Part shown: piece after piece, positions 3,627-52,000 of the stretch
Position numbering within the stretch: the first letter of the stretch is position 1
How the letters are laid out: every line of letters starts with the position of its first letter
Source of the DNA: Elsinoe ampelina
Lineage: Eukaryota
DNA length: 64,000 bases
Direction: 5' to 3'
Assembly: GCA_010093995.1 (NCBI GenBank)
Contig: ML992501.1
Coordinates: 1,270,566-1,334,565 of the forward strand
Program-made: the position numbers and the translations under genes
The notes under the pieces: model-generated
Seen by the model: only the letters and a program-made list of their open reading frames with translations
Database searches by the model: none
What the model was told of the DNA's origin: nothing

Positions 3627-6600
3627 TCATGCTGCGGTCGTGCCATCATGGCCACCCCGGCCTCTCTGCGTTGGACCGCCGCCACCTCTTCCGCGGCTTC
3701 TCCCAGACCTCTCCCTTCTGGCTTCGCGATCGCCGGTAGCTTGTGGCTTCTCGCTGCCATCACGGACTTGCCTACCACTGCTGCGTCTCTCGGCCCCGTC
3801 TTTACCCCTTCCTCTCCCACGGCCAGATTTCCCACCACGTTTGGCGGCACCATTTGCGCTGGTGCTGGCTTCCTCATCTCCCTCGTCAGGTGGTAAAAGT
3901 CCAGCTTCGATCTTCAGCCGTCGTTCTTCCTTGTCCCACCACTCCTGGAACTCCTGCTCAGCTTGAATGTCCTGTAGACTTCGCTTGGCATTGTCCTCTT
4001 TGACTTTGGCGATGATGTCCTTTTCCGTTTGCTGCTGGTTGAGAATATCAGCCATGGACAGCTGTATCGAAGGTTCCACAGGTCTAGGCTGATGTCGAAT
4101 GGACTGCACAGATGAAGTAGGCGCAGTGGCAGATTTGACGGGTGCTGGACGGGAAGCCGTTGTGGGAGTCGTGGGTGAGGCCGCAGCAGGTACCATTGGC
4201 GGCTTTTGGACCGATGCCGAAGGCGTCGGTTTTGAGTTGGCTATGGTCTGCCTCATGGTAAGGTGAGGGGTCGACGATCGGCTTGGGATATTCGGCTTTG
4301 CCTGTGCAGGTGGTGGAGAAGCTTTGTTTTCACCATGCAACACGTCCTTGAGCGATGGGATCTTCGCAGATGACCCGACTGTCTGCCACGGCGAGGCTTT
4401 AGGTGGAGGTGTGCCTCGCATAAGCGGAGTGAGCTCCTCTGTCGTGTTGACCTGCTTCTGCGCCTGCATCTGTGCGGAAGCTTGCTGCTGTTGCAGTTTC
4501 TTGCGCTCCTTCTGCGACATCTTGCTGATAGCTGTTGCACCTGATGGCTCAGCCTTTGCCTTGCTAGCAGCGATCTCAGCAGAGAGACTGGAGATGCGGC
4601 TTGAAGACGTTTGAGCCATGATGTCTCTCATATCGAGCTTTTTGACTGCTGCCGGCGAGGCCGCCCAAGGAGCTCCTGCTGGGCCGGACGATGCCTCTGT
4701 AGGGTGTAATCTTGGACTGGGAGATCCTGTGAGGGGTTTCATAGCGGGGCTCGCAGCAGGCGGAGACAATGCTTTGCCCCGTGAGTCGAACCAGACATCC
4801 TGTAATGGAGATCCGATATAGGATCCGCTCGAGGTAGGCCTTGCCTGACCACGATCAATACTCAGTGCTGGCGCACCAAGATCAAGATCAAGGTCGATTG
4901 CTTCATCATAAGTAGATCCGAGCTTGTCGACGGCTTCCTTGCCCTTCATAGCGGGACTCTGTCTCGAGGTCGGCCCGTTCTTTGAACGTCGTCTCGATTT
5001 CTGCTGAGTCGGCGAGGCATGATCGGGATCGAAGCTGTGTGCTCTGAATGAATTTGATGCCCAATTGTCAATGTCTGAGTGCTTGGTATGGATGGCGATG
5101 GAGTCAATCTTTGCTTGGCGATTGCGATCAAGAATGTCCACTAGTTCGGGATGTCTCTCCAGTAGTAGTGCTTCAGCACGGCCACTCTTCGCAAATGGCA
5201 TGCACGCAAGCTGATTCGCTCGCACAGTTTCATCAAGTTCGTACAGCAGGTCCTCATCGAGTTCGTCGAGGAGACTAAAGCACAGTCAGAGATGAGCTAC
5301 TGCTATCCAAGCCCTCGACTTACCCTCCGTGTAGCATGGACTCCAAACTCAAGCACATGTACTCAAGAGTGGCGTCCTTGAATTCCGAGACCGAGCTGGG
5401 TGCGACGGCATTGAGGAGTGATGCCACGTTGCGTATGTTGACTTATTCAGGTCAGTGAAGCAACAACAAAGATATCCGATGGATAATTACCGTATTGACC
5501 CATGACCTTCTGACAGATTTGTGCAAGCCGGTCAAGCATCAGCTCGTTCGCCACGCTGAGGACTTCCATGATAGTATCGAAAAAGTCCTCAAGATCTGTG
5601 CTCACAACGTTATCAAACAAGTCTTCTCCACTATCGGCATAAATGTGCCGCAGCACAATCTGGAAGATGGGAGGATCGATATGCTTGAGATCCACCTTGA
5701 CCAGATCTGATTTGTCGGCGCTACGACGGCCCTCCAGCCAGCGTCCACCAGCACGACCCATGAACATTCCTTCAAAGAATGGGCATCTGCGGCAAACGAT
5801 TGCGCTATGTACTGGCACCTCCTCATCGTCAGCCAGCTCGACTAGGATGTCTGCATTGTCGAAATAAATCGGATCTCGATATGCGCCCTCAAAATCCTCG
5901 TTCATGGTCTTTGAAGGTGAGATCATTTGTCTGACAGAGGCTTCCAAATGCTTCATGCCTAGGTTACTAGCAATCTTCATCAGCTCGGTCCTGATTGCCC
6001 GATATCGATGAGCCAATTTTGGCGCCCTGCTGGCATAATGCCAGTAGTCAATGACGTTATCGGTGTACAGATAGAGTACAAAATTGACAAGTGTCAATGG
6101 ATCCAGTCCAGTGAGGGTGATGGTCGGTACCGTTGAAGACGAATCGATCTTCAAGAAATCCAAATCCTCTGCATCTGTATCCGTCAAGAGCAGCGCAAGC
6201 TTGTCTCGGAGTACGCGGCTACGAGCTGCTAGTACCGATTGGTGTGCCGGAATGGCAAGATCTGAGACGTTTGAGAGTAGTACCACGTCGTAGCCATCCT
6301 CTGCCGGGCCATTAATATGATACAAGTGTTGCTTAAGCTCCATTTCCAGATCCTTGGACTCGAGAAGATGCTTCTTCAAAAGTACTACCTCATCGGTGTT
6401 CTTTCCTTGCCAAAACCTAGGAGCAGGGGTTTCGCTTTCGCTGTCAGGTGTCATGGCCGATGTTTGAAAATCTCTGAATGACAGAAGTGGCAGAAGATCC
6501 CTCCACAATCCACTTTCCTCCACTGCAATCTGTGTCTTGGTCACATCGCAATCTCGCCGTATGGCCGCATAAGCGCCATACGATGACGCGCGAACGCCAA

Positions 6601-8638
6601 TCACGCGGGTCAAGCCGGAAACACGAGAGAACTTGTAGTCTTTTGGCTTGTAGTCTGCGGTCCCGGACGCAGTAGCATCCTTGATCTTAGCTCGCCGAGA
6701 ACGCTTCCAGACGCTTCCTTCTTCCGTGGTGATAATAATAGAACCATCTGCATCGACCCCGACGTCTCGGGCAGCCATGTTGTGTTTCTTGAGAGACCAG
6801 ATACATTGCGGCTGTGAAAGAGCGGCCTTGATCTTTCCGGGATTTGTCGTTGAGGCGTTAGTGGATTGAGCGCCCTGAGGCTGCCCTACCGACAAACTGT
6901 ATACTTCGCCGTTGCTAGACATGGCACAGATGGAGTCTCCACCAGAGGTGACCTGAACAACATGGTTTTGCCAACTGTCTGCTTGCATTGTTGTCATCTT
7001 GTCATTCAAGAAATAGTTCTGAAAGCTATTGGTGGGGAATTGTACTTTCGCATAGCCGTAATTTGCGAAGACCCAGCAATCATGTGAGCCAGATAGGAGA
7101 CAGATGGTTGCCCGGTCAATAGCAGAGATAGATGCTATTGGGGTAGAGAAGAGAGACGCGCCGACTTTGCGCGGTATCAGCTGCACTTCCAGTGATCGCG
7201 CGTCCGAGTCAACCAGACCGAGCTGACCTTCGTTTTTGCCCCAAGTAAAAAGCGAATTTCCAGTGTATGCAACGGAATGTATGCGAGAAGCCGCCACACC
7301 ATGTATGACTTCACGCTTCAAGGGTCCGAATATTTGGCGAGGTAGTGTCTGCACTGGATCTTCGTCTTTCAGCCCTGTTCGTGGTAGGGAATAGCCCAAT
7401 TGTCCGAAAGAGTTTGAGCCCCATGAGAAGATCTCGCCGTCATCTGTAATAGCCAGGGTGTGATTGAGACCAAGTCCGACGGAGACTATCTTCTTGCCTG
7501 ACAGTCCACCACCTTCGACACAGGCAAAGGTGAATTGAGACTTCTCGTGTCCAAGACCGAGTCTACCACCAGGTCCATGACCGCAGACGTGCAGATTTGA
7601 CTCTGGATCATCGGTCAAAACAGCTGTATGTAACTTCGACATGAAGACATCTTCGATCTTGATGGGGCGACTTTGCACAACCCAAGGCATTGATTCAACA
7701 GGTACGTGCTGCTTAGCGTTGCTTGTTGGGTGATCCAAGTGGGTAGAGTCGGCCATGGAGGACGCTTTAGCACCGTTTGCCATGTGCTCGCGGTAGAAGC
7801 GCTGGAGCAAGTGTGGAGGTCGTCTCAGAGTAATCCTTTCGGGCCACTGTCTATCATCTTCATCTCCAAAACCGAGGGTAATGTTGCGGTTGCTCCCAAA
7901 GGTGAAGCACTCGTCACCAATAGTGCCTTTCGGTGGCATGTGGCGAGCACGTCGTGGAGCATCACTGTCCTCAGCGCCTGGCATATCCGTGTCGCTTGAC
8001 ACCGAATCAGATCGCCCTCGTCCAGCTGACTCGGGATGCAGTGAGCGGTCTTGAATCGTGGCAGCATACAGATCAAGTGGACCATGACCTTCACGATCCT
8101 TGATTTTGATCAAACCCAGAACATGATGTGTTTTGCCACTGAGAGCTCGACCAAATGCATTATGAGCGTCTCTTTCGAGAATGGCCCGAGCGATAGAGAT
8201 GTTGCCAAAGTAGAAAGCTCGGTGGAGAGCTGTCCAGCCGCTTTCCAAATCTTGGAGATACAAGTCGACCAGAGGATGATCGAGTAGCGCCTGGACAAAG
8301 GAGATGGCATTTTCTGAATTGGAGGAGGCAGCATGATGAAGGATTGTGAGGCCATGCGCGTCGCGCCAGTTGACGTCTGCCCTGGTCAAAGTGATGGGCC
8401 CCTGACCGCTTCCGGGAGTGTGTATGTCTCGCGCTGGTGTCCGCTTCCCCTTTGCGCCGAGTATAGGACTTGATCCTCCATGTGTTGCAGGACTCGAGCT
8501 CAATTGCGTGTTCATATTCTGCCCGCCTCCTGCTCCTTTCTGTGCCGGCGCGCGCACATGATATGTCGCCGTCTCCAACAGGTGCCGGAAGCGGTCGACA
8601 TCATCTTCGAGAAAGTATCTCCAGAGATAGCTGCTCAT
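3627..8638 (-). CDS. btb1: Ankyrin + RCC1-repeat + BTB/POZ protein (Btb1/IBTK-like Cul3 adaptor)
   Basis: Ankyrin motifs (GLTILHHAA, GWTALHRA), RCC1 repeats (FSWGSNSFGQLG, FTWGKNEGQLG) and two BTB domains (IPAHQSVLAARS, VHSAIVCRRCPFF). Introns 5442-5490 and 5275-5323 link the ORFs. Confidence 0.88.
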
Positions 8639-9887
8639 GGGCTAGAGTGGGGGGATGCTTGCGCGCAGCTTCGACTATGGCACCTCGCCTTGACCTCGGG
8701 GGATCAAAGCTTGTTTAAAGGTACCGGCGAAGCTGACCAGCGGTCGAGAGAAGGGGAGGGGAGGTTGTTGGTTCCTCGATCAGTCGATCAGTCGGTCGTC
8801 GTTGAAGATGCCGTTTCCGTGAAGCTTTGGGTGCGATAAAGGTGACGTTGAGCTGACAGACGTGTGGCGATTGCACAGAGATCTTGGGCTGACAACGATA
8901 TCCAAGTGTCGGCGACTGTGGTGGATTGTCGAGTAAGCAGTTGACGCGTCTTATGTTGAACAAAGAGGATGCTCGTCGACTGGTATACAATGAATATTGG
9001 ACAGGTGTGCCGTCATGACCGGACATGGGAACGCGACCTTCCCCGCGGCCGGCGCTCAATCACTTGCTGCCCTCGAAAACGTGGTCCCTGCGTCCATCGG
9101 AACAAGGCAGATCTCGCTAATTGCACTTAGCCGTTTCCTGTCTAGTGTCGAGTCAGCTCGTCGACGAATATCCGAAGCTGCCGTGCTGCGGAAATGCTTC
9201 ATGTTGTAGAGCTTCAGCAGATGCCTTTGACGACACCTTCTACGCCGCGGCAAAATATTGTCGACCTTGAACCCTTCTTAGCCTTCGCATTCTCACCAGG
9301 TGTCTGCGCATGGACAAGTGATGACCCCCAGCAAAACTCCTGTGGTGCTGCACTGCCTTTACCGCTTCTCGCCGATTTTGTGGTGGCAGGGGCAGATTGT
9401 GTGCATCTCGCTGTTCATCAGGTCATCTTTGCTGATATTCTAGTCAAAGCCCGCATCTCACTACGCTCTAGGCGTTGCTGCATGAGCTTTCGACGGCTGG
9501 ATAGAGTAGCACTATGACTATGGCCAGCGCGTCGCAAACGTCCAAGTAAATCCGAAACACACATCGAGCGCGCGCGACTCGCCGCACTTCAATTCCTGAA
9601 ACACAACTCGGTCCTGTCAAATCAGCTGTGCCAGCAATGGTGCTGCCGCCTCACAACCCAGTCAAGTGGACCCGTACAAGCATTCACAGCTGCAAAGGAC
9701 GCGTTTCGACCAGGGTAGGTCCGACACTGACGCAACAGTGCAGCCGTCACAGGTCCTTTTTTCGCACGGTTCCCCACGGCCGCGTCTCCCTTGCTGCCGA
9801 CCTAATAGCTTTTATATCGAGCACTCTATCCTGCCCTAACGAATTCTCCCATCTCCAGAGGGTCACGGAATCACCAGCAGAGACAAC

Positions 9888-13441: not shown

Positions 13442-13713
13442 GGCTAGAAACGCGTGCAGTCTGACATGACTAACGCCGTCTGAAGCATCAACGCCCAACA
13501 GCCAACTGATCGGCACGCTGAAACAGCCACCAAATTCCCTGCGGGCGTGCAGGACTGCACCAAGAGTGCACCAAGAGCCTCGACGGCGTTGCTTGACTTG
13601 CATCTCACATCAACGCCGGCCTCATGCTCGCCGCTAATCTCCCGCTCGCCTGCCTTTCCGCTGACATGGAACATGCACGTCCGTCCTTGCACGACGCCCG
13701 GTGGGGTCTGGGG
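13442..13713 (+). promoter_or_regulatory. Possible XlnR-type (GGCTAG) and tandem CreA-type (SYGGRG) sites upstream of the arabinanase
   Basis: GGCTAG at 13442; GTGGGG at 13701 and CTGGGG at 13708. These are short motifs that also occur by chance. Confidence 0.3.
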
Positions 13714-13983
13714 TGCATCAACATGCATTCACACGTTTCTGGGCCCCTGCTGACCACTCTCCTCACCAACTCGAATGCTTTTGTAAGTGGAGCTCAATGC
13801 CTGATGTCCTAATTTCTGTATAGTCTACCAAATGCTGGCCCTTCATTGATGGAAACAACGGCCAGACGTCTCGTACCACAGCAATATCCATCTATATTGC
13901 CTCCTCGCAAGTATCTACATATATCTCCTTTCCCCTTCTCTCTCCCTTCCACCCACCATCCCCACCCCCCGACCACCGCCACC

Positions 13984-14955
13984 ATGCACTTCCTCACCAC
14001 CCTCACCCTCCTCACCACGGCGCTGGTCGCCCAAGTCCACTCCTACGCCATGCCCCTCTCCTGCTCCGGCGTCTGCACCAACACCCACGACCCCTCCCTC
14101 ATCCGCCGCTCCTCCGACGGCACCTACTACCGCTTCGCCACCGGCGGCCGCATGCCCATCTTCACCTCCCCGGCCCTGACCGGCCCCTGGAAACAAGTCG
14201 GCACCGTCCTCTCCGGCGCCGCCAAAGTCCCCGGCCAAAACACCGACCTCTGGGCGCCCGACGTCTCCCTCGTCGGCTCCACCTACTACCTCCTCTACTC
14301 CGCCTCCTCATTCGGCAGTCAAAACAGCCAAATCGGCCTCGCCACCTCCAAAACCCTCGACCCCGGTTCCTGGACCGACCTCGGCTCCGTCTTCAGCAGC
14401 AAAAACGGCGACAAATACAACGCCATCGACGCCCAACTCCTCCAGCTCGGCCCCAGCAACCACGTCGTCAACTTCGGCTCCTTCTGGCAGGACCTCTTCC
14501 AATTCGACATTGACATCACCCGGCCCACCATCGCCAAGACGGCCGCCCGACAGCTGGTATACAACGCCACGGGCGCCCACGCCGTCGAGGCCGCCTACAT
14601 GGTCCAACGCGAGGGCATGTTCTACGTCTTCTTCTCGGCCGGCAAGTGCTGCGGGTACGACCGCGACCGGCCGGCCAAGGGCGAGGAGTACAGCATCCGG
14701 GTGTGCGCGAGCAAGACGCACAACGGGGGGTTCAAGGATAAGGAGGGCAGGGATTGTCTCAAGAATGGAGGGACGGTGGTGTTGGCTAGTCATGATAATA
14801 TCTATGGGCCGGGCGGGCAGGGGGTTTATCTCGATCCGAGGGAGGGGTGGTTGTTGTATTATCATTATGTGGATACAAAGGTCGGGTATGGCGATGGCCA
14901 GAAGAGGTTGGGGATTAACAAGATTAGTTGGAGTGGGGGGTGGCCGTCGGTGTAG
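13984..14955 (+). CDS. abnA: Secreted GH43 endo-1,5-alpha-L-arabinanase
   Basis: Signal peptide; motifs HDPS, LWAPDV, NAID, FGSFW, AVEAAY and IYGPGGQG; intronless. Confidence 0.93.
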   Translation: MHFLTTLTLLTTALVAQVHSYAMPLSCSGVCTNTHDPSLIRRSSDGTYYRFATGGRMPIFTSPALTGPWKQVGTVLSGAAKVPGQNTDLWAPDVSLVGSTYYLLYSASSFGSQNSQIGLATSKTLDPGSWTDLGSVFSSKNGDKYNAIDAQLLQLGPSNHVVNFGSFWQDLFQFDIDITRPTIAKTAARQLVYNATGAHAVEAAYMVQREGMFYVFFSAGKCCGYDRDRPAKGEEYSIRVCASKTHNGGFKDKEGRDCLKNGGTVVLASHDNIYGPGGQGVYLDPREGWLLYYHYVDTKVGYGDGQKRLGINKISWSGGWPSV

Positions 14956-15170
14956 AGGGGGGGAGGAAGGAGAGGGGGAGTCAAGGGGAGAGGGAGGGGG
15001 AGAGGGGGTTCGCTTCTTGGATATACTTTCGCAATGAGGCACTGCAGCAGAGAGACTGCCGTGGCCGAGTCACGAAATTCATGCACATATTTTGCTTCTA
15101 TCTTTGTCTCTTCTCAAGTCGCCGCCGTGTTCATCGTCCAGATCCACCCACCAAAGACCTTGAAGGCTAT

Positions 15171-16323
15171 TCACAGCTGCAGTGTGCCCATCTCGACATT
15201 GACTCTCGACACGGTGGTGTTCGGCTTGGTGTCAGCTTGTCTAATCAGCATCTCAGCAGGGTAAGCAGGCATCAACCTGTCTTTGTCTCCAGTTTGGTCA
15301 GTCTCGCGTGCACAATTACTTTGAGTGTGACCTACCTTCCGGTATTCCTAATTCGCGACATCGACTGTCAAAGTGCTCAAAATCGTACACGTGGCAGATA
15401 CATTGTGCTGGGATCCATCCATGGACCAGGTAGTGGTCGGGGCTTGTGTACTTCACGCCGTCCTCCTTCATCGTATACGTTTTTCCCCTGGCGTAGCGCT
15501 TGACCATGGTATCGGACCTGTCCCAGAACACGTCCAATCTGTCCATCATCTCCGTGCTAACAACAGCGACGAACCAGTCTGAGCATGCGCTGTTTTTCTG
15601 CTTCAGTGCATGCGATCGGATACGGTGCCAGATCCAGGCTATGTCTTTGTGCAGCGATATCCACTCGGATGGTTCCTCTGACTCTTCGCAGTGTTGCCGG
15701 AGTGATTGTTCGGATACATGCTTTGGTTTACCACGTTCTCCGACGTCTTTGAATGGCTGGCACCCTGGATCAGCAAGGGCAGTGCACAAGAATCCCATCT
15801 GCGGGTGAAATAGTGTGTGCGATTCCTTGCGGTATGCCCTGAGTAGCAGCTGAGGCTCCTGCCAAATGGATGTTACACCAGGACGCAATACAAGCTCTGG
15901 GAAGCTCTTCAAGTGCAAACCCAAGAGAGAGCGTGCCGCGTGGGCAGAATCGATGACTCTGAGTGCAGACTTTTTGGCTTCATTCTTGAGGATCTTGATG
16001 TTCTCTGTCAGGGTTCGGTGTATGTTGGCATTGGAACGAGGTGGTAGAGACTTCTCCCCAAGATTGCCTACCCGGGAGAGGCACCTTTCAAAGGCGAGTT
16101 CCATGCCGAAGATGGATCTTGTTTCATCGACTTGCCAGATCAACCCATTGAGGGCCTGGATATCAGGATCAATTAGAAATCCTCTGCCCTTGGGCGGTAC
16201 CCAGATCTCGCCGTTGTCGTCGGTGTCGTTCGCCGAGTGATCCCATTCTGGTCCAAGTGAAACGATGGGTATACCGAACCCATCTTTCCGGTTCGTGTAA
16301 TTGCGAAGCAAGTCTGCCTCCAT
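15171..16323 (-). CDS. Paralog A: cytosolic protein with a putative ART-like (DUF7587-like) domain
   Basis: 335-codon ORF with LLLRAY, SEWISL, DRLDVFWDRSD and HYLVHGWIP. Phase-1 intron donor at 15335. The acceptor is either 15287 (GAG, giving a stop at 15171) or 15277 (immediate stop), so the end is uncertain. Confidence 0.75.
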
Positions 16324-16852
16324 GGTCTTTGCACAGGTGATTGCTACTACTCATCGTGACAAGGCGGACGAACATATGTGGACGCAATCGTAGGTGCGAC
16401 CTCAAGGTTACACAGACGAATGCTGCCTGAACACTGAACAACCTCGGTTACGCAAACCACTGTTATCTCGCAAGGGTACACTGGCTCTCACACGCTTCTT
16501 TCATGACCTTGTACAAAACTGTCGAACTACTCGTAAATTGTCGATGACTCAGTCTCGCTATTGCAAGATCACGCTACCTTGACCCTGGACGTGGAATCAG
16601 CACTCCGCAATAAGGTTCTCGCGCAACGTCTGAGTCTGGTCGTTGTAAATTTGGGATATGCATCTCACTACTGGCGTGGCTCAGGCACTAGAACGGTATT
16701 AGCGGTGCTTGCTAGGCTGAGATAAGAGTGATACATACAAGGTACATTGATGGCTGGGTCCTGCACTGACTTGATCCCGAGCAAGTCCATCATAACCTTC
16801 AGCCTCTCATGAGCTGACTTGACTTCTTGGATAGTATCAGCCAGCTGCTGCA

Positions 16853-17915
16853 TCAGTTGCTCTCGTCCCCAGAGGGCGATGAGTCTGGCAACTGGGGATT
16901 CGGCGATGACATAGCTTCCGTCTGCAACAGTTCAGTATTCTGTGGTTGCCAAATGTGCTGCCTGCTTACCTTCTCTGACTCCCAACGACTCCAGTACCTC
17001 TTCAAACTCAACGAAAGTGTATGTCTTCACAACAGCAGCCTGTGGAATCCAACCATGGGCAAGGAAGTGCCGTGGCTCAGCGTTGCGGACTGGAGCATTG
17101 GGACCCAAGGCCGTATGGACAAGCTTGTCAGATCTGTCCCAATACACCTTGAGCCGATCGAGCGCATCTGTCCGGACAATGCTGAAGCGCCAAGTGTCCT
17201 CGCCCGCCCCCTTCCGCTTCTTATCAATGGCTGTTCGCGCCCATCTGTGCGCCAGGACTAGATCATCGGACATCGATATCCAGGGTATCTTTGGGCACTT
17301 GGTCCCTTCACAATGCTCCTTCAGTCTGTTCTTTGGGTCGACTAAAGGATTCTGCAAAACTTCTGGTATCCAGTATCCCCACCCTCGAGCACGGAAGCCA
17401 AGATTGTCATGTAAGGCTGTCTCGGAAGTGGTTCGCCAGGCTCGAACAAGGAGTCGAGGAGAGCGGCCTGCGTAGATGCCATCATCGACAAGATCCGGCA
17501 GACCTGCCACGAGCTGTCGACTGCGACACAGCACCTTCTGGTCCATTTCCACGGCTTGATTGTTCATGCGGACGACTTCCGCCTTGATTGAAGCAAGGAT
17601 ATCCGCCTTTGATCTATCGAGGTCGACGGAAGCTCTGCATGAGCCGACTTCGGTCAGGTAGCCATTCATCTGGCAGAGTCCTTTGTGGTCAAATTTGAAG
17701 CGCATGGCTGCTTGGCTGTATTCCTCGCACCGACGAGACACCAACCCAGCCTCGACCCAGTTGATTGGGACACATACATCGGTCGTCTGCTCCGTAAGCT
17801 GCTTGACTGGCTCTTCATCTGAGCTATCGTCGTCGGCAAATTCAGTCATCTGAACTGGCTTTGGGAGTTCATATACTTGATCTTTTGCGTTCAATCTGTG
17901 TCGAGCGGAGGGCAT
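16853..17915 (-). CDS. Paralog B: putative ART-like (DUF7587-like) domain protein
   Basis: Motifs LLVRAW, IPWISM, DRLKVYWDRSD and HFLAHGWIP. Intron 16922-16969; last exon DGSYVIAESPVARLIALWDESN*. Confidence 0.78.
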
Positions 17916-18219
17916 TGTGCTGAATTCTCTGCTTGTGCCTTTCCGACGGTAAGATACCTGACGCCCACTTGATCAAGGGGGATTGAGAGGCCTTGGTAAG
18001 ACATTGTACAAGTTGGGCAGCGGCGGGGTAATTTCTTGTCCCTTAGGGAGCTATAGCTTCTGTGAAGGGTTTAAGCTCGAAAGACCGTTGCTGTGGATAA
18101 CTGCAGAGCTAACAGCTATGACTTCACAATGTTGACCTCGACAACTAGACCCACGATCTTCGGTCAAGGCAGAATGAAAGGAATCATCACCATCTAAAGC
18201 GTACCTGTATTGACGCTTC

Positions 18220-19252
18220 TTAGACCGGAAAGCTTGCAGGTAGCTTGGACATCAACAGCTCTGCACGCTGGATGAATCCATCATCTACATTCATTAATCC
18301 TGCAATCATACATAGAGGATCTGGAAATTTCCTTACCAGCAAATATACCCAACTCGTCACACACTTCCAAGAAGTCCTCTCCAGAGATTGTGACCATACA
18401 CTGCCTCGGTATCCATTGGTATGCCTGGTATCGTCGGCTTGCCGGCCTCTTCACCGTCAACAGAATCCACTTGGAAGAGGAGTAGCTTTCTGTTGGCCTC
18501 AGAAATTTACTAGACCGGCCGTAATAAACGTCGAGGCGCTGCATCATGCCCACACTGATAACAGCTACTCTCCACTCATTTGGCTGGTCATCATTGGACC
18601 AATTCGGTGGCTCTCTGACGACTGTCCGTAGTATTTCTCGGATGTCTCGATGCAGTGGTATCCAAGGCGAGTGTGAAGCTGGTGATCGGTCGCCGTGACA
18701 TGGGCGGTCAACTCTTGCTTGTGAGACAGTGTTGGACAGTGAAGAAGTGGCAGCCATTGCCTCCGAGGTGATCTCCGACTGGCTCACAAGTCCTAGAGAT
18801 GAATGAAAGAGGGTAGATGAGGTCTGATGATATGCGTGAAGTAAAATCCGAGGTCGACTCCTGAAGCTCCTCGGCGCAGCCTGAAGACCTGCTCTCATAA
18901 GGGCGCGCTCGTTGTCGATGTTCTTGTAGATCATGGCAGTCAGACAGTCGACCACGATCATTGTTCGCTCTGTGTCAGCTTGAAGTATCCGGAGAGCTTC
19001 ATGAGCGGTGTGATGTGGTTGGACAGAGCAGACCAGGAGCCACTTGATTTTGGCGCTTGAGGCACAGAACGGAGCGCATCTCTGAGCGGCGACGAGCAGT
19101 TGAAGGGCACGTCTGAGCTGTCTCGTCCGGTTTCCGAGGCTCTGACATATTGTATCGGACGAATAGTCGATTCTGCTGGCCGAAGGGTCGACAATCGGAA
19201 TGCCGCACTCGTCTTGGCCGCTGGTATAGCAGCTCACGGATCTGGAAGACAT
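18220..19252 (-). CDS. Paralog C: degenerate ART-like (DUF7587-like) domain protein
   Basis: Motifs ILLHAY, SPWIPL, QRLDVYYGRSS and RYQAYQWIP. Intron 18285-18336. N-terminal DECGIPIV matches DGFGIPIV of paralog A. Confidence 0.72.
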
Positions 19253-19566
19253 GGTCGCTGCGAGAATAGTATGCAGGATTGTCAGCCCAAAAAGTAGGAA
19301 TTGATTTATGATGCATCTTTGTGCGATGGCTGTACGTGATTGCTTTTGGTGTGCTTATGAGGCACAGTCGGGCGCTTAACCTCGTGCTGGTAGGTGGGAC
19401 CATCCCAACCATAATCATTTAATTCGACTAGAATTTACGAATTTGTGCGGTTAATTTGGCGCCTGCGTAGAGCTCCACTTCAGACACAATGTGTGCCTAG
19501 TCTGAAGCTGATACAGCCAAAGCGTCGGAAGAGCGACGCCGCCCGCTGCCATCCCCGAGTCAAGCC

Positions 19567-20300
19567 TTACAACGACACGCACATAAGAGCGCCTAGAATG
19601 GCTACTGGGGCCCAAGTCGTTCATCGCTGTCTGCTAGCCCCTCCAGTTGCATCTTCTGCCGTAGTGTTCGTCACCAGTCTCGTCTGGTCAGTCGGGTTTG
19701 CGTCTTTGCAGCTCTCACACTGCTTCGCGCGAGACTCGGTCTCATTGGCGAAGTTCCATGTGATTGTTCCTCCCATGCAGGCGAAGCCCGAGTCACTCCA
19801 GCATCGCTCTTGCGGCGGGGATTTGGGCGTACAAGCTCTCAATGCCGTACCATTCGGCGGGCCATCGGCGTTGCAGCCACCGAGTCGACCTTCGATTCAA
19901 ATATGGTCGACCATGAAGACAGCCCAACCTCCTTGGCCAGATGTAAGTCTGACACCAATCAATGTCGACATATCATGCTGCATGATTGTGTAGAACAACG
20001 TGCCAGTGGTGTTTTGAACCAATTGGAGGACCTGGTTTGTCTCATTTGCTGGCAGAGTCAAATTCAATGTAGCCCGGTCCGTGGCAATGCCACCATACGA
20101 GATGTTGTATCGATCGGCCCCTTGCACAGGTGAACGGGTATTCACCGAACAGTTGCGAGGACCTCCACACCAGAACCCATCAGAGATAGTGATGTTAGGA
20201 CCTGGCACAGTAGTGTCCGATTGGTAACTTCGAAAGTCGTACATGTCGAGACGACAAGAGGTATGATGGTAGATAGGAAAAAAAGATATGATGCCACCAT
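19567..20300 (-). pseudogene. Disrupted gene for a Cys-rich secreted, probably GPI-anchored protein
   Basis: Signal peptide MVASYLFFLSTIIPLVVS from 20300 is out of frame with the body. The body is one frame broken by TGA at 19897 and 19621, and ends in a hydrophobic tail TTWAPVAILGALMCVSL*. Confidence 0.65.
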
Positions 20301-20816
20301 GATATTTGATGTGCTCGGTGAGAAGCTCTGAAATGAGAATGCTGCGTACCTTCCACCTGAAGTGGGCTGCTGCTAAGTCTAAATAGCCTCTCAGGACATA
20401 GCAGCCATGCCCGTTTCAGGCGATGTAATTCTGATTAATGAAGAATACATGTTGGACCTTGAGGCACCCAACGAGAATGCGAGTGGCATCCAAGACAATG
20501 GTTCTGCCTGATCAGCGTTGGTGCCTTCAATGGCCAAGACGAGTCAGGGACGACTTCTGCAGTCTACTGTTAGGGGGACGGGAAATGTGACGTTAAGCCG
20601 GGCGGAAAGCGGAAGCCTCAATGTGATAGACCGAGAAGGATCAAAGAAGCGACCGAAGGGACAAGGGGGAGAGGGGAAGATCGGTCAAGGCGGAGAAGAT
20701 TAGCGGAGCTGGTTGAGGCGGCGGTGCGGCATTTCCGGACCGTGTCCCGTCCTTCAAGAAATTTTGGCAGAATCGTCATGCCGACTCAGTTCTACCATCC
20801 GCTGTTTGTACAACAA

Positions 20817-22481
20817 ATGGCGGGAAAGAAGTCAAGCGGTCTGCTTGCCCAGCTGGCAGACTTGGAGGATCCAACACCAAAAGGTCAGCCCCGAGTCTAC
20901 GTACCAAGCACACAACTAAACTCCACAGACTTTGACCCAGAAGATGAGCGGCCGTTCGATAGCGAGGAAGATCAGTCAGGCGATTCCGAAGAACCCGATG
21001 ACCATGCCGAGGATGCTGCTAGAGATCACTATGTCTCGGTCAGCAAAAGCAAGCTGAGGAAGTCGGAAGGGCCAAACCTAGGCCCTCGATACACTGGATC
21101 TCGAGTCAGTAGGGAAGTAGCCTTGGAAGAGGACGACCAGGATGATCCCTTTGCCCGCGGTTTCGACGACGACCCCAGTTCGGATGACGATGGAGCAGAC
21201 GCTACTATTGGAAAGGCAGACTTGGTAGAGAGTGGAGCGTCCGATGGAAGCAGCTCCGGCGACGTGGACAGGAGTGAGAGCATGAGCGACGATGAGGACG
21301 ATACTGAAGGCTCGAGCGATGATGGGAATGATATCGGGAGCACAGTCAGTCCTGCTATGAGCGGATTGCAGAAGGCTTCGAGTGCGGATGCAAGCATCGC
21401 CAGGAAATTGCTTGCCCAGAATCAAAAGTCAGTAGTGTCAACCATATCACAAGCCGCCAAAGACGAAGCGGAGAAAGGCGATGCTGTCAAGAAGCAGCGC
21501 AACACATTTGATAATCTGCTGAACATGCGGATCAAACTCCAGAAAGCTATCATTGGGACCAACACACTTTCTGGGCTCGCACGAGACTCCAAATTGCAGC
21601 CGACGGAGGACCTGGAGAGCGCATTCAAGTCAGCAGAATCGGCTGCCTTCACTCTCTGGGACTCGCTCACTAAACTTCGAGACTCACTGCAGACTGCTCG
21701 AGGTGGTAGCAAGAGAAAGCTCTCCGATTTCGCCGTGGACTCTTTGACGCCCGATCTCCTGAAGTACAACCAGACACAAGACTCTGCTTCGAGGCAATGG
21801 CAAGACTCTACCTTGGAGAAGTGGTATGCTCGGACACATGTCGACGCAACGGCAGGTCAGAACCGGAACAAGCTCTCACAGACAACCACAACGTCATCTG
21901 TGCATGACATCCTTTCAAACCATCTAAACGACACAAATAGATTGATCAAGCGAGCGCGGACACCAAGGTCATGCGCACCATATCAATTACAGCAGATCAC
22001 AGCGAAGAAGCCTCGCGCGTCGGATCCCGACGTTGCAGACGAAGACGAGCAGGTACGGCGGAGAGACACTGGTGACCCAACAATATATGATGATGCGGAC
22101 TTCTACTCTGTGCTGCTATCTACGTTACTCGAACAGAAGAGCTCATTCACACCCGGTGCGAACACGCAGGGGAAAGGCCCGAGTGAGGAAATACGAGGTA
22201 TGAATGGTTATCAGATCAGGCGAGAAGCAAAGACCAAAAAGGTTGTCGACACAAAAGCATCAAAAGGGCGGAAGCTCCGATACACGGTCCATGAAAAGCT
22301 GATGAACTATTGTGCACCCGAGGACAGAGGCGCGTGGGGCGAGCGGCAGATTGACGATCTATTCTCGAGCCTGCTCGGCAGACGGGTGGCACTCGAAAGC
22401 GACGGAGAGGATGATGCGGCAGCAGACGACGGCTGGGCAGCAGTGGAGGAAGGCGAGAAGACATTGTTATTCGGTAGATAG
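20817..22481 (+). CDS. BFR2: Bfr2/AATF small-subunit processome protein
   Basis: Acidic N-terminus, RIKLQKA, IYDDADFY, and VDTKASKGRKLRYTVHEKLMNY (TRAUB domain). Probable in-frame intron 20884-20928. Confidence 0.95.
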   Translation: MAGKKSSGLLAQLADLEDPTPKGQPRVYVPSTQLNSTDFDPEDERPFDSEEDQSGDSEEPDDHAEDAARDHYVSVSKSKLRKSEGPNLGPRYTGSRVSREVALEEDDQDDPFARGFDDDPSSDDDGADATIGKADLVESGASDGSSSGDVDRSESMSDDEDDTEGSSDDGNDIGSTVSPAMSGLQKASSADASIARKLLAQNQKSVVSTISQAAKDEAEKGDAVKKQRNTFDNLLNMRIKLQKAIIGTNTLSGLARDSKLQPTEDLESAFKSAESAAFTLWDSLTKLRDSLQTARGGSKRKLSDFAVDSLTPDLLKYNQTQDSASRQWQDSTLEKWYARTHVDATAGQNRNKLSQTTTTSSVHDILSNHLNDTNRLIKRARTPRSCAPYQLQQITAKKPRASDPDVADEDEQVRRRDTGDPTIYDDADFYSVLLSTLLEQKSSFTPGANTQGKGPSEEIRGMNGYQIRREAKTKKVVDTKASKGRKLRYTVHEKLMNYCAPEDRGAWGERQIDDLFSSLLGRRVALESDGEDDAAADDGWAAVEEGEKTLLFGR

Positions 22482-22579
22482 ACCCGAAGAACTGACAACT
22501 TGGTATTGCACAAACACGGCATCCCTGCGCCAGTACCCATGCTTGACCCATACTGTGAACGCCAATCCCATATCCTCCG

Positions 22580-24167
22580 CTACTCCCAATCCTCATCATC
22601 GCTATCATCCTTCTTCGCCTCTTTCGGACTGCTCGGCGTCTTGCTCGTTGCACCGCTGACGATGTCGTAGCTAGCGTCGCTATCGGCTGTGCTCTTCTTG
22701 TCGTCCTCATTCGACCTCCTCGGCGATTTCTCCGCGCCCTCATCAGCCTTGGGCGGCGTGAGCGTCGTCGTGCTCTGGCTCGCCGGGTTCGTCTTCCCAT
22801 CATTGACCGGCGTCGACGACTCATCCTCCTCCTCCTCCTCATCCCCCCAACCCACCTCCTCCCCATCATCCGCGGTTGCACCTGCACATCATCAGCACCT
22901 GCTCCGGCCCAGAGCGCCACATACTCACCCTTCAACACCTCCTTCCTCCTCCTCTCCTCCTCCTCAACCACCCCTTTCAAAAAGAAATACCTCCCCCAAA
23001 ACACCGCATACTCCACCTTCTCCGGGACCAACCCCCCAAACACCCTCCTCAACTCCTCATACCTCTCCAACTCCCTCGCCACCTCCTCCGTCCTCCCCTC
23101 GACATCAAACCCCCGCCAAAACCCCTCCCACTCCCCACTCTCCGGATCCTTGAGGAAACTCTCCTGCCGACTCACAATGACATGCATCTGCGCGTCAAAC
23201 CTACTCGAGTGAAACACCCTCTTGCCCTCACTATCGTTCGTCTCGAAAAGCACCTCCCGCTTCGTCCCCTCCTCCGCACCCTGCTCCGGCGCGGTGACGG
23301 TCACTGCGTCACGGAAGAAACTCCGCATGTTGCTCCCGAATTTCAGCAGCGCTTCGTCCGCCGCGTCTTCTGCTTTTTGAATGTCCTTCAGGCGCGACGC
23401 GGCTTCGAGGCGGAAGCGCGAGACCATGCTCGTGGCTTCTTTGACGATGTCGGCGGGGAGGTTCTCCACGTGTTCGGTCTCTGGGGCGGGAGCGGGGGAT
23501 GCGGACGGGGAGGAGGCGTCGGTGGCGCGGATGGTTTTGGTGGGACTGGCGGGGAGGGCGAAGGTGGGGTCGGAGAAGCTGGTCGCGCCGCTGTCGGTGG
23601 GGGGTTGGGAGAGGGAAATGCCCCGCGCGCGAGAGGCGAGGTTGCTTTGGAGGTCGGTGAGGCCTCGCGTGGCTTGGGTGGAGACGTGGGCGACTTCTTG
23701 TTGGGCGTTGGTGTAGAGGGTTTCGCCCTGGGAGCAAAGAGTGTTAGTTGTGTCCTGTCCGCATGATGTTGGGCTGCCTGATATCTCTTTCAAAGAGTCC
23801 TGCACCAAGAACCTTCCCTTTGCCGTGCGGACATGGTTGTCGATCAGACCATTCCTTGCGGGTATCTCTCCTCCTGCTTCTCTTCCAGAATCCCCCTTCT
23901 CCCCATTCGTGACTATCACCTGCCAGCCTTCCATCCATGTCCGGCACGTTCAGTCTACGACAAGGATGAAGCAGCTCTTACCTGCGCTCTGACACTCCCC
24001 CATAGTCCCCCCAGCCGCGCTCCCCATGGTGACGCGCTCACAGCCTTGAAGGCCTCCTGAAACTCCGCATTCAGTCCAGCCGGTCTATCCCCATCTTTCC
24101 GCTCTGCTCGCCCGCTCTCGTCTACCGCGAGAGCCTCTTCCTGGATGTGGTCATAGGCTACGTCCAT
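22580..24167 (-). CDS. DOS2: BSD-domain protein (Dos2-like)
   Basis: N-terminus [14 protein letters not shown] motif [17 protein letters not shown] and C-terminus DSDDEDWE. Introns 23728-23981 and ~22882-22929. Confidence 0.85.
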
Positions 24168-49059: not shown

Positions 49060-52000
49060 TGTTGTAACTAGCAAATCGGATCGAGAGACGTGTGTTTCAT
49101 TCAGAGAGTTACAATAACCGATTTATCTACTGTGCGTGCGCTGACTCATCAGTACCAGTTCTTTAGTACTAGAGAAGCTGTACTAGCCTTCTATTATAAC
49201 ACTCCCCCTCTAGTATAGATTGCTAAAGCTAGAGAACTGTCCTGTCACATATAAGTGAAGTAATTAGCTTATTACTTTATCTCTTTATAATTACTTATAA
49301 TTATTAGTGTTAGCTAATTATTAGTAAGAATTCACTATTAGTTTAGCTTATAATTGCTAGCAACAATAGTAACTATTAACAATAGCTAGGCAGCTATTGT
49401 TTATGTAAATAGACTAGCTTATAAGTCTTAATTAAAGAGATATAAGTATCTAACTAGCCTCTTTATAATTTCTCTTTTCTTTATTATACTTATAGTAGTA
49501 GCCTTTTCTTTTATATAACACTTTTACCTTCTTACTATGCTATATTAATAACACTTATAACATAAGCGCTATAGTATAGTAATAGCTAGGCATTAGTAGC
49601 ATTACTGCTAGTGCTAGTGCTCTAAGTAGTCTACTAGGTAGCGGAGGTAGTAGTAAGAAGAGAAATCCTCTATTAAGGTTGCCTAGTACTTCTAATGTTA
49701 ATTACAATACTACTATAAGACTAATTACTCGTCTTAATACTCTTAGTAAGTAGCTATAAAGTATTAATAGCACAAGCTAACATTAATAGCCTAATTAACT
49801 TAGACTTTAACTTAATAGTTAGCCGACATAATCTAGAATGCTCTTCTTAGGCTTAGGATAATTAGTTATTATAACTATGCTAACTTATATCTTATCTAGA
49901 GGTCTATAGCAGTCTAGGCCTTTAGTACCTATAGTACACACCTAGTAGTTACTAATTCTATTCTAGTTAAGGATCTAACTAAGCAAGTTAACCTTACTAG
50001 ATCTACTAACTACTCTACTACTTTAATAGCTTCTAGTGCTACTAGTAGAGTAGTCTACTATAGCACTAATCGCTACACTAAGTGTTAGGGATCTAACCCT
50101 AGCAATAATTAGAGCAAGGGTAGGGGTAGTAAGTTTAGTAAGTGTATTACTTTACCTAGTTAGCTTAATAAGGCCTACACTTGCTATACTTATAGTAACT
50201 AATATGCTAGATATTCCTTAGCTAACTATACTCTAACTCTAAGGCCTATTAGCTCTCCTAAACCTATAAGGNNNNNNNNNNNNNNNNNNNNNNNNNNNNN
50301 NNNNNNNNNNNNNNNNNNNNNNNNNNNNNNNNNNNNNNNNNNNNNNNNNNNNNNNNNNNNNNNNNNNNNNNNNNNNNNNNNNNNNNNNNNNNNNNNNNNN
50401 NNNNNNNNNNNNNNNNNNNNNNNNNNNNNNNNNNNNNNNNNNNNNNNNNNNNNNNNNNNNNNNNNNNNNNNNNNNNNNNNNNNNNNNNNNNNNNNNNNNN
50501 NNNNNNNNNNNNNNNNNNNNNNNNNNNNNNNNNNNNNNNNNNNNNNNNNNNNNNNNNNNNNNNNNNNNNNNNNNNNNNNNNNNNNNNNNNNNNNNNNNNN
50601 NNNNNNNNNNNNNNNNNNNNNNNNNNNNNNNNNNNNNNNNNNNNNNNNNNNNNNNNNNNNNNNNNNNNNNNNNNNNNNNNNNNNNNNNNNNNNNNNNNNN
50701 NNNNNNNNNNNNNNNNNNNNNNNNNNNNNNNNNNNNNNNNNNNNNNNNNNNNNNNNNNNNNNNNNNNNNNNNNNNNNNNNNNNNNNNNNNNNNNNNNNNN
50801 NNNNNNNNNNNNNNNNNNNNNNNNNNNNNNNNNNNNNNNNNNNNNNNNNNNNNNNNNNNNNNNNNNNNNNNNNNNNNNNNNNNNNNNNNNNNNNNNNNNN
50901 NNNNNNNNNNNNNNNNNNNNNNNNNNNNNNNNNNNNNNNNNNNNNNNNNNNNNNNNNNNNNNNNNNNNNNNNNNNNNNNNNNNNNNNNNNNNNNNNNNNN
51001 NNNNNNNCTTAAATTAGTATAATCTCTTATAAGTTTAATAGCTAACTTGTTATTAATAAAGACTATAGTTAGGCTAAGGTAAATATTAGTAAGTAGCCTA
51101 AGTTTAATAATAAGATTTCTTAACTAATTAATCTCTCTATAGGTCTTAGTAAGAGCAAGGTATTTAGCCTTAGTACTTAACAACATAATAATCTTCTATA
51201 GCCTTAACTTCTAAATAACTAGTGTACTAAGCATGTAAATAATAGTGCTAGATATAGATCTTATAGTTAATTTATCTCTAGTAAAGTCTAAGTTAGAGTA
51301 GGCCTTAATTATATTAACTAATAGTCTATTAGTCTTCTTAAAGGTAAGGCCCTTTATAATAGTCCTATTAATATACCTCTAGATCTGCTTAGCTATAACT
51401 ATATAAGCTATAGTTAGATTCTAAAGGAACCTAGCTAGGTAATTAGTAGCATAGCTAATATTAGGCCTTATATTGTTAGCTAGATATTACAATTTACTAA
51501 TAATTCTATTAAATGTCTTATAGTACTAAGCATTAACTTAGCTATTAGTTAGTTTATAAAGTTAATTAATAGGATGCTTTATAGTTCTTACTTAGTAAAG
51601 ATTATAACCTTTAAGCTTCTCCTTTAAGTAGTATAATTACTTAATCTTAATTAAGTCCTTAGTTCTATAAAGTTAAACACTAAGGAAGAGATTTAAGTTT
51701 ATAATCTTTATTAGAAACTTAAGATAAAGATCTTTAACTAGCTTATCTATATGCTTCTACCTAGTAGTAATAATCCTAAAGTTATTAATATACATAAGAA
51801 CTATATAATACTTATTAATAAAGAGATAGGTATTACTATAGGATCTAATAAAACTAAGTAATAGAAGTGCCTTAACTATAGCGTTATACTAGAGGGTAGT
51901 AGCTTACTTAAGCTTATATAAGCCCTTTATAAGAATAATAAGCTTATTCTATTTACTAGGAATTAGTATACCTTCTAGGTAGGAGATATAGTTCTTAATA

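Follow-up and report, generated by a model that had tools for sequence, protein, structure and literature searches.

The window analysed here is a stretch of 64,000 nucleotides (nt) from Elsinoe ampelina, a fungus of grapevine (NCBI GenBank assembly GCA_010093995.1, contig ML992501.1, positions 1,270,566 to 1,334,565 of the forward strand, read 5' to 3'). Positions below are those of the window. Three open reading frames (ORFs) of the minus strand, called here genes A, B and C, lie head to tail in it, and their products are predicted to end in a domain with the fold of ADP-ribosyltransferases (ARTs). Gene A encodes a product that matches the NCBI protein BDZ85DRAFT_315158 with 100% identity. 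The first exons of A, B and C translate into 329, 315 and 305 residues, respectively, and the annotated gene models, with the lengths of the full products, are as follows.

15171-16323, minus strand: gene A (367 residues, BDZ85DRAFT_315158); exon 1 15336-16323, intron 15287-15335 (49 nt), exon 2 15171-15286.
16668-17915, minus strand: gene B (382 residues, BDZ85DRAFT_5272); exon 1 16970-17915, intron 1 16922-16969 (48 nt).
Minus strand, remainder of gene B: exon 2 16739-16921, intron 2 16688-16738 (51 nt), exon 3 16668-16687.
18220-19252, minus strand: gene C (326 residues, BDZ85DRAFT_5271); exon 1 18337-19252, intron 18285-18336 (52 nt), exon 2 18220-18284.

The three genes are paralogues. 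In BLASTP comparisons, A and B are 28% identical (E 3e-25), A and C 26% (2e-21), and B and C 26% (1e-13), which is far beyond chance. A first-pass annotation of the window had already described three head-to-tail paralogues with colinear blocks, and all the blocks that it quoted are recovered in the alignment, among them LLLRAY/LLVRAW/ILLHAY, WIS/WIS/WIP, RL.V(F/Y)..RS and HYLVHGWIP/HFLAHGWIP/RYQAYQWIP. The N-terminal motif that it had seen in both A and C is also there, as D-x-x-G-I-P-I-V at residues 14-21 of the two proteins. At the DNA level, no repeats linking A, B and C, or flanking them, were found. Judged against the usual thresholds, indices of repeat-induced point mutation (RIP) are normal in the three genes (TpA/ApT 0.48-0.52), and A, B and C are too diverged from one another for RIP targeting. 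Elsewhere in the window, RIP-type signatures are present in an AT-rich block at 49500-57000 (GC 0.18, TpA/ApT 1.89, (CpA+TpG)/(ApC+GpT) 0.30) and in the AT-rich positions 1-1000 (GC 0.33, TpA/ApT 2.16).

Transcript contigs over 13500-22600 come from four runs belonging to three studies (X1 from study P1, X2 and X3 from P2, and X6 from P3). These runs are not recorded as RNA, and their contigs were treated as spliced RNA because introns with GT..AG ends on the minus strand are missing from them. All the spliced introns have such ends. The intron of A (15287-15335) is spliced out in one of the four runs (an X1 contig), intron 1 of B (16922-16969) in all four, intron 2 of B (16688-16738) in two, and the intron of C (18285-18336) in three. 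Since the contigs look like spliced RNA, genes A, B and C are all transcribed. The first intron is found at a homologous position in the three genes: it is a phase-1 intron, it follows L-G-(I/V)-x-x, and it splits an Asp codon (G|AC in A, G|AC in B, G|AT in C). This common intron had been predicted, and the spliced contigs from three studies confirm it. One of the three metagenome relatives inspected (locus L005) shows at the homologous place, around 590-660 of its plus strand, a candidate GC..AG intron with a TACTAAC branch site (G|GCAAGT ... TACTAAC ... CAAG). As this intron is plausible and lies at the same place, the common intron is probably older than the triplication proposed below.

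The transcript contigs also bear on the spaces around the genes. The intergenic stretch between B and C (17916-18219) is fully covered, and one X1 contig runs from the coding region of B (17135) through this gap and across the spliced intron of C. The 3' end of C and the 5' end of B may thus overlap, or there may be read-through; contigs of this kind are no proof of a single transcript. At 19864/19933, opposite strands are joined in one X2 contig, which is probably an assembly artefact or the result of overlapping antisense transcription.

The contigs differ from the window at three sites within the genes, and all three differences change the protein. At 16176, X2 and X3 carry L50I in A, and at 17480 the same two runs carry G146S in B. 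The third difference is a nonsense allele of gene C.

18428, minus strand: polymorphic site in gene C; with G>T on the plus strand, codon 275 changes from Tyr (TAC) to a stop (TAA).

This allele, Y275*, is present in X2, X3 and X6, that is, in two of the three studies, at depths of 4.7, 2.8 and 2.5, respectively; X1 and the window carry the intact allele. In the same three runs, the contigs of A and B show no stop or frameshift within the stretches covered.

A and B belong to the Pfam family DUF7587 (PF24494), to which the first-pass annotation had pointed. A scores 67.4 bits (E 1.9e-18) and B 47.6 bits (E 2.4e-12, residues 152-303), for a gathering cut-off of 27 bits. C has no Pfam match at E<=1 and so falls outside DUF7587 by this measure; it is a diverged member of the family, counted as one because of its BLASTP match to A and its grouping with A and B in the tree described below. 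Run against 1.84 billion sequences, a profile made from the three proteins retrieved 110 representatives at E<=1e-3, and 64 of these are also below E<=1e-10. A candidate of 999 residues with a GH115_C domain (P0075) is a false positive and was left out, which leaves 109 of the 110 for the residue counts. An alignment of 61 members was also used, and 60 of these match DUF7587. None of the 61 matches an ART family of Pfam, Enterotoxin_a included, at E<=10. Two matches to EAD7 (E 0.049) among them are weak and were treated as noise.

The family is small and fast-evolving, with a mean column identity of 19%. Its clusters in the ESM Atlas are 100% eukaryotic, Ascomycota being the commonest phylum, and a word-indexed search with the family profile returned two proteins only, including one named relative from Purpureocillium. 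The taxonomic range given here is that of the ESM Atlas clusters and of this one Purpureocillium protein, most relatives being from metagenome or run assemblies. Neither "DUF7587" nor "PF24494" is mentioned in any paper of the literature searched. A search for related loci with a 10-row alignment gave three loci, of which only one (L004, 17.6 kb) has long flanks. It carries a lone DUF7587 relative (6811-7715, plus strand), split over three reading frames, and no second copy within the flanks; the frame splits could be due to a pseudogene, to introns or to sequencing errors.

Of the three copies at the E. ampelina locus, A is the most canonical. In the remaining 58 members, 29 columns have a conservation of at least 75%. 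A agrees with the family at 24 of these columns, B at 22 and C at 18; the scores of the remaining members lie between 18 and 29 (median 25), so that C stands at the family minimum. Four conserved cysteines, at residues 180, 212, 308 and 322 of A, are found in 39, 49, 55 and 50 of about 60 members, respectively; A keeps all four, C three and B one. The N-terminal motif is likewise a family character, with D14 in 27 of 41 members, G17 in 31 of 41 and P19 in 38 of 40.

The products have no hydrophobic N-terminus and no membrane segment on Kyte-Doolittle analysis. Within the first 40 residues, the highest 10-residue value is 1.62 for A, -0.13 for B and 0.96 for C, as against 3.06 for the signal peptide of the A subunit of heat-labile enterotoxin (LT-A). 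The proteins are therefore probably cytosolic, and the earlier remark that none has a signal peptide holds. The AlphaFold2 model of A, made from a 61-row alignment, has a mean predicted local distance difference test score (pLDDT) of 82.7 and a predicted template modelling score (pTM) of 0.81; the model of C has a pLDDT of 79.4. In both models the N-terminal half is helical, as had been supposed. Two parts can be distinguished in the model of A.

15910-16323, minus strand: N-terminal region of A (residues 1-138), with the D-x-x-G-x-P motif (14-19) and two long helices (53-85 and 105-138).
15358-15864, minus strand: predicted ART-fold domain of A (residues 154-322), with R162, H211, S223, H297 and the W303-I-P305 motif.

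Several structural comparisons place the second part within the ART fold. In a Foldseek search of the PDB with the model of A, the best 50 matches listed are all ART-fold proteins (DarT, pertussis S1, Tpt1/KptA, EcPltA and cholera toxin/LT). VIA-align, which is independent of Foldseek, aligns the model with EcPltA at Z 9.9 (root-mean-square deviation (rmsd) 3.3, 135 residues aligned) and with pertussis S1 at Z 9.8 (rmsd 3.4, 132 aligned); TreX, KptA, Scabin, LT, DarT, CARDS, pierisin and MTX follow at lower scores. All 17 rows of the structure search that span residues 139-363 of A are of the ART fold, counting 2jqn, which we take to be an ART-fold protein, and in the other 33 rows of the same search the N-terminal part is matched by helices of a generic kind (Z <=7.4). 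A second structure search of A gave 21 chains with Z of at least 8, and the best 15 of these 21, which are those listed, are all ART-fold. The model of C matches EcPltA (Z 8.9), KptA (8.5) and pertussis S1 (8.2), and the structural neighbours of the family in the ESM Atlas include DarT and DUF952 clusters. The ART-like reading of the first-pass annotation is thus upheld at the level of the fold: for both A and C, the model resembles EcPltA and pertussis S1 and is not devoid of an ART split sheet. On the basis of these models, an ART fold of the C-terminal domain is supported, nearest to the pertussis/cholera branch, whose active site is of the Arg-Ser-Glu type.

Conservation in the family singles out a small set of polar residues. 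Residues were counted after alignment of 109 family proteins with the profile of the family; the denominator is the number of proteins with a residue at the column. R162, in the first strand of the model of A (159-164), is kept in 80 of 84 proteins, and H211 in 94 of 96. S223 (88 of 98) is in a strand (221-225) that precedes a helix (228-241); its motif is W-I-S vs. S-T-S in the toxins, and the putative correspondence is one of order and topology. At the position of H297, 85 of 102 proteins have His, 8 Tyr, 4 Gln, 3 Phe, 1 Arg and 1 Leu, and none has Glu or Asp. P305, eight residues downstream of H297, is kept in 100 of 101. B keeps the four polar residues as R158, H201, S214 and H283.

In the alignment of LT with cholera toxin (CT), R25, H62, E128 and E130 are invariant and S79 is nearly so (precursor numbering). 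R162, H211, S223 and H297 thus come in the same order, and in a like context of secondary structure, as the Arg, His, Ser and catalytic Glu of the toxins. The structural alignments begin at residues 154-159 of the model and residues 1-4 of the toxins; these offsets put R162, in every toxin row, on residue 9 of pertussis toxin (PT) or residue 7 of CT/LT, which we take to be the active-site arginines. The best local match obtained with hhalign pairs H211 with His62 of LT. With the domain only, a local alignment puts residues 292-311 of A on residues 107-126 of mature LT, H297 falling on Glu112 and I304-P305 on Ile119-Pro120. Both alignments are non-significant (probability <=0.1%) and are noted because they are consistent with the structural order of the residues. 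From these observations we infer a residue-by-residue equivalence with the toxins. Compared with the Arg-Ser-Glu branch, the family has the Arg of the first strand (R162; His in C), has no catalytic Glu, and shows no profile relation to Enterotoxin_a/Pertussis_S1.

The first-pass annotation had proposed that A and B keep the Arg and the Ser and carry His at the late Glu position, which agrees with the alignments, the offsets and the non-significant local profile match, and that the three copies form a series of graded active-site decay. The latter applies to C only. Since 85 of 102 members have His at this position and none has Glu or Asp, His is the family norm and not a mark of decay in A and B, which match 24 and 22 of the 29 conserved columns. 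The earlier list of residues, supported for the Arg, the Ser and the Glu position, missed H211, the best conserved of the polar residues.

C is in a different state. Its substitutions at and near the conserved positions are R to H139, H to P184, E to H186, S to P199 and H to R274; the loss of the Arg, the Ser and the Glu-position residue (H139, P199 and R274) had been correctly noted before. In the 61-member alignment, no member other than C has Pro at the column of H211, and none other than C has it at that of S223; among the three paralogues it alone is devoid of all four polar residues (R, H, S and H). The product of the Y275* allele would in addition be devoid of the last core strands. Because the four polar residues are lost and a nonsense allele is segregating, C, which keeps the predicted ART fold, is read as a dead copy on its way to becoming a pseudogene and not as a maintained partner. 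That Y275* occurs in C while A and B are uninterrupted where covered is also the main argument against C being an indispensable antidote. Of the idea that the genes are old, RIP-free duplicates kept by selection, age and freedom from RIP are supported, and maintenance of C by selection is difficult to reconcile with Y275*.

A quick maximum-likelihood tree was built from the domain of 61 members. In it, A, B and C form one clade, with a support of 90 in the Shimodaira-Hasegawa-like approximate likelihood ratio test (SH-aLRT; not starred). The end branches measure 0.85 for A, 1.53 for B and 2.22 for C, the median being 0.74. Taken together, the clade and the long end branches of B and C suggest that the gene was triplicated locally and that B, and most of all C, then changed faster. 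In the set used for the tree, the closest relative of A is 38% identical to it in the domain, and a word-indexed search of 5.8 billion proteins for a close orthologue of A found A alone.

We propose that the locus results from a lineage-specific tandem triplication of a DUF7587 gene. Each product would consist of two parts, a family-specific helical N-terminal region that starts with D-x-x-G-x-P and a C-terminal ART-fold domain. A and B, probably cytosolic, would bind nicotinamide adenine dinucleotide (NAD+) in the usual cleft of the fold and carry out a reaction independent of the canonical glutamate, either ADP-ribosyl transfer to a strong nucleophile (as with phosphate in Tpt1/KptA) or NAD+ hydrolysis. 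The helical N-terminal part may regulate or target the enzyme, and C would be a dead copy. For the statement as a whole, that is, triplication, ART fold, NAD+-using A and B, and dead C, we give a probability of roughly 0.55. Its evolutionary and structural part is very probable; its catalytic part is more tentative, and we would put it somewhat below even odds; NAD+ binding, catalysis and any cellular role are what we infer.

A number of points weigh against this proposal. The best E-value of the Foldseek search is 1.7e-3, none reaching 1e-3, and Z values near 10 are only moderately above the background of 7-8 stated for the tool. A profile search of the PDB gave coiled-coil noise only (best E 0.17), and the hhalign probabilities, both with LT-A and with an LT/CT alignment of 22 sequences, were at most 0.1%, whether full-length or domain and whether local or global; at the level of sequence, no link between the A/B/C family and any ART is seen. 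The proposed Ser and His/Glu equivalences are based on topology, alignment ends and the non-significant local alignments. In 15 of 102 members, Tyr, Phe or Gln occupies the position of H297, and a missing catalytic Glu is a classical mark of inactive ART-like proteins, so that the whole family may be non-catalytic. As for the history of the locus, long branches are united in the A/B/C clade, to which long-branch attraction may contribute. Finally, each Y275* call is one low-depth contig per run, recurring in three runs of two studies.

The main alternative takes up the point of catalysis. According to it, the whole DUF7587 family would be a non-catalytic ART-fold scaffold, a sensor or adaptor whose ligand or partner might be NAD+, ADP-ribose or something else, and the three copies would differ in binding specificity only. 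Such a scaffold would fit with the absence of Glu or Asp at the catalytic Glu position in all 102 members and with the variability of this position (His 85, Tyr 8, Gln 4, Phe 3). It would also fit with the lack of a match to any ART sequence family and with a model of C that is confidently ART-like despite the loss of the polar residues. However, H211, R162, S223 and P305 are conserved at a level usual for catalytic sites. Moreover, ART-fold enzymes without a catalytic Glu exist, for example Tpt1/KptA, and these match the model at Z 7.6-8.7 with identities of up to 22%. We consider the scaffold reading unlikely, if by no means negligible.

A second alternative retains catalysis and changes the target: A and B would be enzymes of the Tpt1/KptA kind, for which the acceptor of the ADP-ribose of NAD+ is an RNA or DNA phosphate and not a protein side chain. 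A phosphate nucleophile would need no catalytic Glu, as in the Tpt1 reaction, and the NAD+ lobes of the Tpt1 type stand high among the matches and have the lowest rmsd. Aeropyrum Tpt1 is aligned at Z 8.4-8.7 (rmsd 2.9-3.2, 94-97 residues aligned, 21-22% identity), and KptA at Z 7.8 with A and 8.5 with C. These matches nevertheless span about half of the domain (88-97 residues), whereas the pertussis-type chains are aligned over 122-135 residues. In addition, the first strand of the domain bears an Arg, as in the Arg-Ser-Glu branch, and there is no RNA-binding lobe of the Tpt1 type, the N-terminal part being a helical hairpin. We regard this alternative as improbable.

The third alternative, put forward by the first-pass annotation, in which A and/or B would be toxic NAD-using enzymes with C as a pseudoenzyme antidote, or the locus an allorecognition or meiotic-drive module, finds some echo in a degenerate paralogue adjoining two conserved ones, in a small, fast-evolving family with no close orthologue of A among 5.8 billion proteins, in three intraspecific differences that all alter the protein (L50I, G146S, Y275*) and in a fold common to bacterial toxins such as TreX, for which there is an immunity protein, and the DarT of DarTG. 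It is nevertheless unsupported, partly contradicted and highly improbable: an essential antidote should persist while the toxins remain and Y275* interrupts C in runs of two studies in which A and B have no stop or frameshift where covered, while the family gene of locus L004 stands alone, so that tandem sets are not an established trait of the family, and the longer family members have no additional Pfam domain tying them to NLR or HET systems.

The surroundings of the triplet are in part as described before. The genes expected as neighbours, abnA and BFR2, correspond to a GH43 gene and an AATF/BFR2-type gene that do flank it; an ORF between C and the latter gene had gone unmentioned.

13813-14955, plus strand: GH43 gene, neighbour on the gene A side.
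19897-20415, minus strand: DUF6060 ORF, between C and the BFR2-like gene; borderline, at 26.7 bits for a cut-off of 26.5.
20574-22481, plus strand: AATF/BFR2-type gene, neighbour on the gene C side.

The region of the DUF6060 ORF is covered by an unspliced X1 contig (19361-20464). The BFR2-like gene and parts of the region are without contig cover, which carries no evidential weight. Further away, a long minus-strand ORF (5447-8641, 1064 residues from stop to stop) encodes ankyrin repeats, RCC1 repeats and a BTB domain.

A 2026 review counts only four described fungal writers of ADP-ribosylation, namely two poly(ADP-ribose) polymerases (PARPs), Tpt1 and a SirTM, and allows that further ARTs may exist (PMC13720257). 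If the proposal made here is correct, DUF7587 would be a candidate fifth kind of fungal writer, intracellular, with a domain shaped like pertussis toxin and a different catalytic residue. The family is present in a grapevine pathogen and in other fungi, the known phyla being mostly Ascomycota. The triplet would also be a convenient natural series, with a canonical copy, a divergent copy, and a copy that has no conserved polar residues and is already broken in some isolates. More speculatively, DUF7587 could be an undescribed class of cytosolic NAD+-using enzymes, mostly of Ascomycota, derived from or convergent on the pertussis/cholera ART fold, with a histidine-based Arg-His-Ser-His active site that replaces the catalytic glutamate. 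Such an enzyme might evolve fast and act as an effector in immunity or in conflicts within the cell, and the triplet would then be a birth-and-death locus with a canonical, a divergent and a dying copy. We regard this extended view as doubtful. If the family is inactive, the finding shrinks to the fold annotation of a domain of unknown function.

Among known systems, the nearest are pertussis S1 and the E. coli pertussis-like toxin EcPltA (PDB 7skk, 7u6z and 4z9d), which match the C-terminal domain best over its whole length (Z 9.8-9.9, rmsd 2.9-3.4, with 122-135 aligned residues). As in these toxins, an aligned Arg in the first strand is followed by a conserved His, a Ser on the strand before a helix, and an Ile-Pro with its Pro eight residues past the catalytic position. 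The differences are nonetheless marked. Identity is 10-14% and escapes sequence methods, and DUF7587 has His (or Tyr, Phe or Gln) in place of Glu. DUF7587 proteins are also devoid of a signal peptide, of B subunits and of an A2 tail, they have an additional helical region at the N-terminus, and they are fungal and not secreted.

In the A1 chain of cholera toxin/LT (Enterotoxin_a), the fold is again that of ARTs (Z 7.0-8.2), Arg, His, Ser and the Glu position come in the order seen in DUF7587, and in both the catalytic position is followed by an "x-x-x-x-G-x-I-P-x-x-x-I" pattern. In contrast, DUF7587 has no Glu-x-Glu, hhalign gives a probability of at most 0.1%, and none of the 61 members matches Enterotoxin_a at E<=10. 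The NAD+ lobe of the RNA 2'-phosphotransferase Tpt1/KptA resembles the domain in being an ART-fold lobe without a catalytic Glu (Z 7.6-8.7) and has the highest identity of any match (14-22%). Only 88-97 residues are aligned, however, and DUF7587 has a first-strand Arg and a helical N-terminal part, where Tpt1 has an RNA-binding lobe and a different residue in the first strand. DarT (of DarTG) and the Rhs toxin TreX also have the ART fold (Z 6.0-6.8 and 8.0-8.2, respectively). Both are toxins with a neutralising partner and are the model behind the toxin/antidote idea; the partner is in each case an unrelated protein (a macrodomain for DarT, TriX for TreX), unlike the degenerate paralogue found here. 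In a 2012 survey of polymorphic toxins, Tox-ART-RSE proteins, with the signature RxDxR, S, [DN]xN, E, are reported from ascomycetes and basidiomycetes as well (PMC3482391). DUF7587 is distinguished from this signature by the lack of its Glu. The locus is best filed as a variant within the ART fold, representing a catalogued but unstudied family with a His-type site, and not as a member of the Arg-Ser-Glu toxin family.

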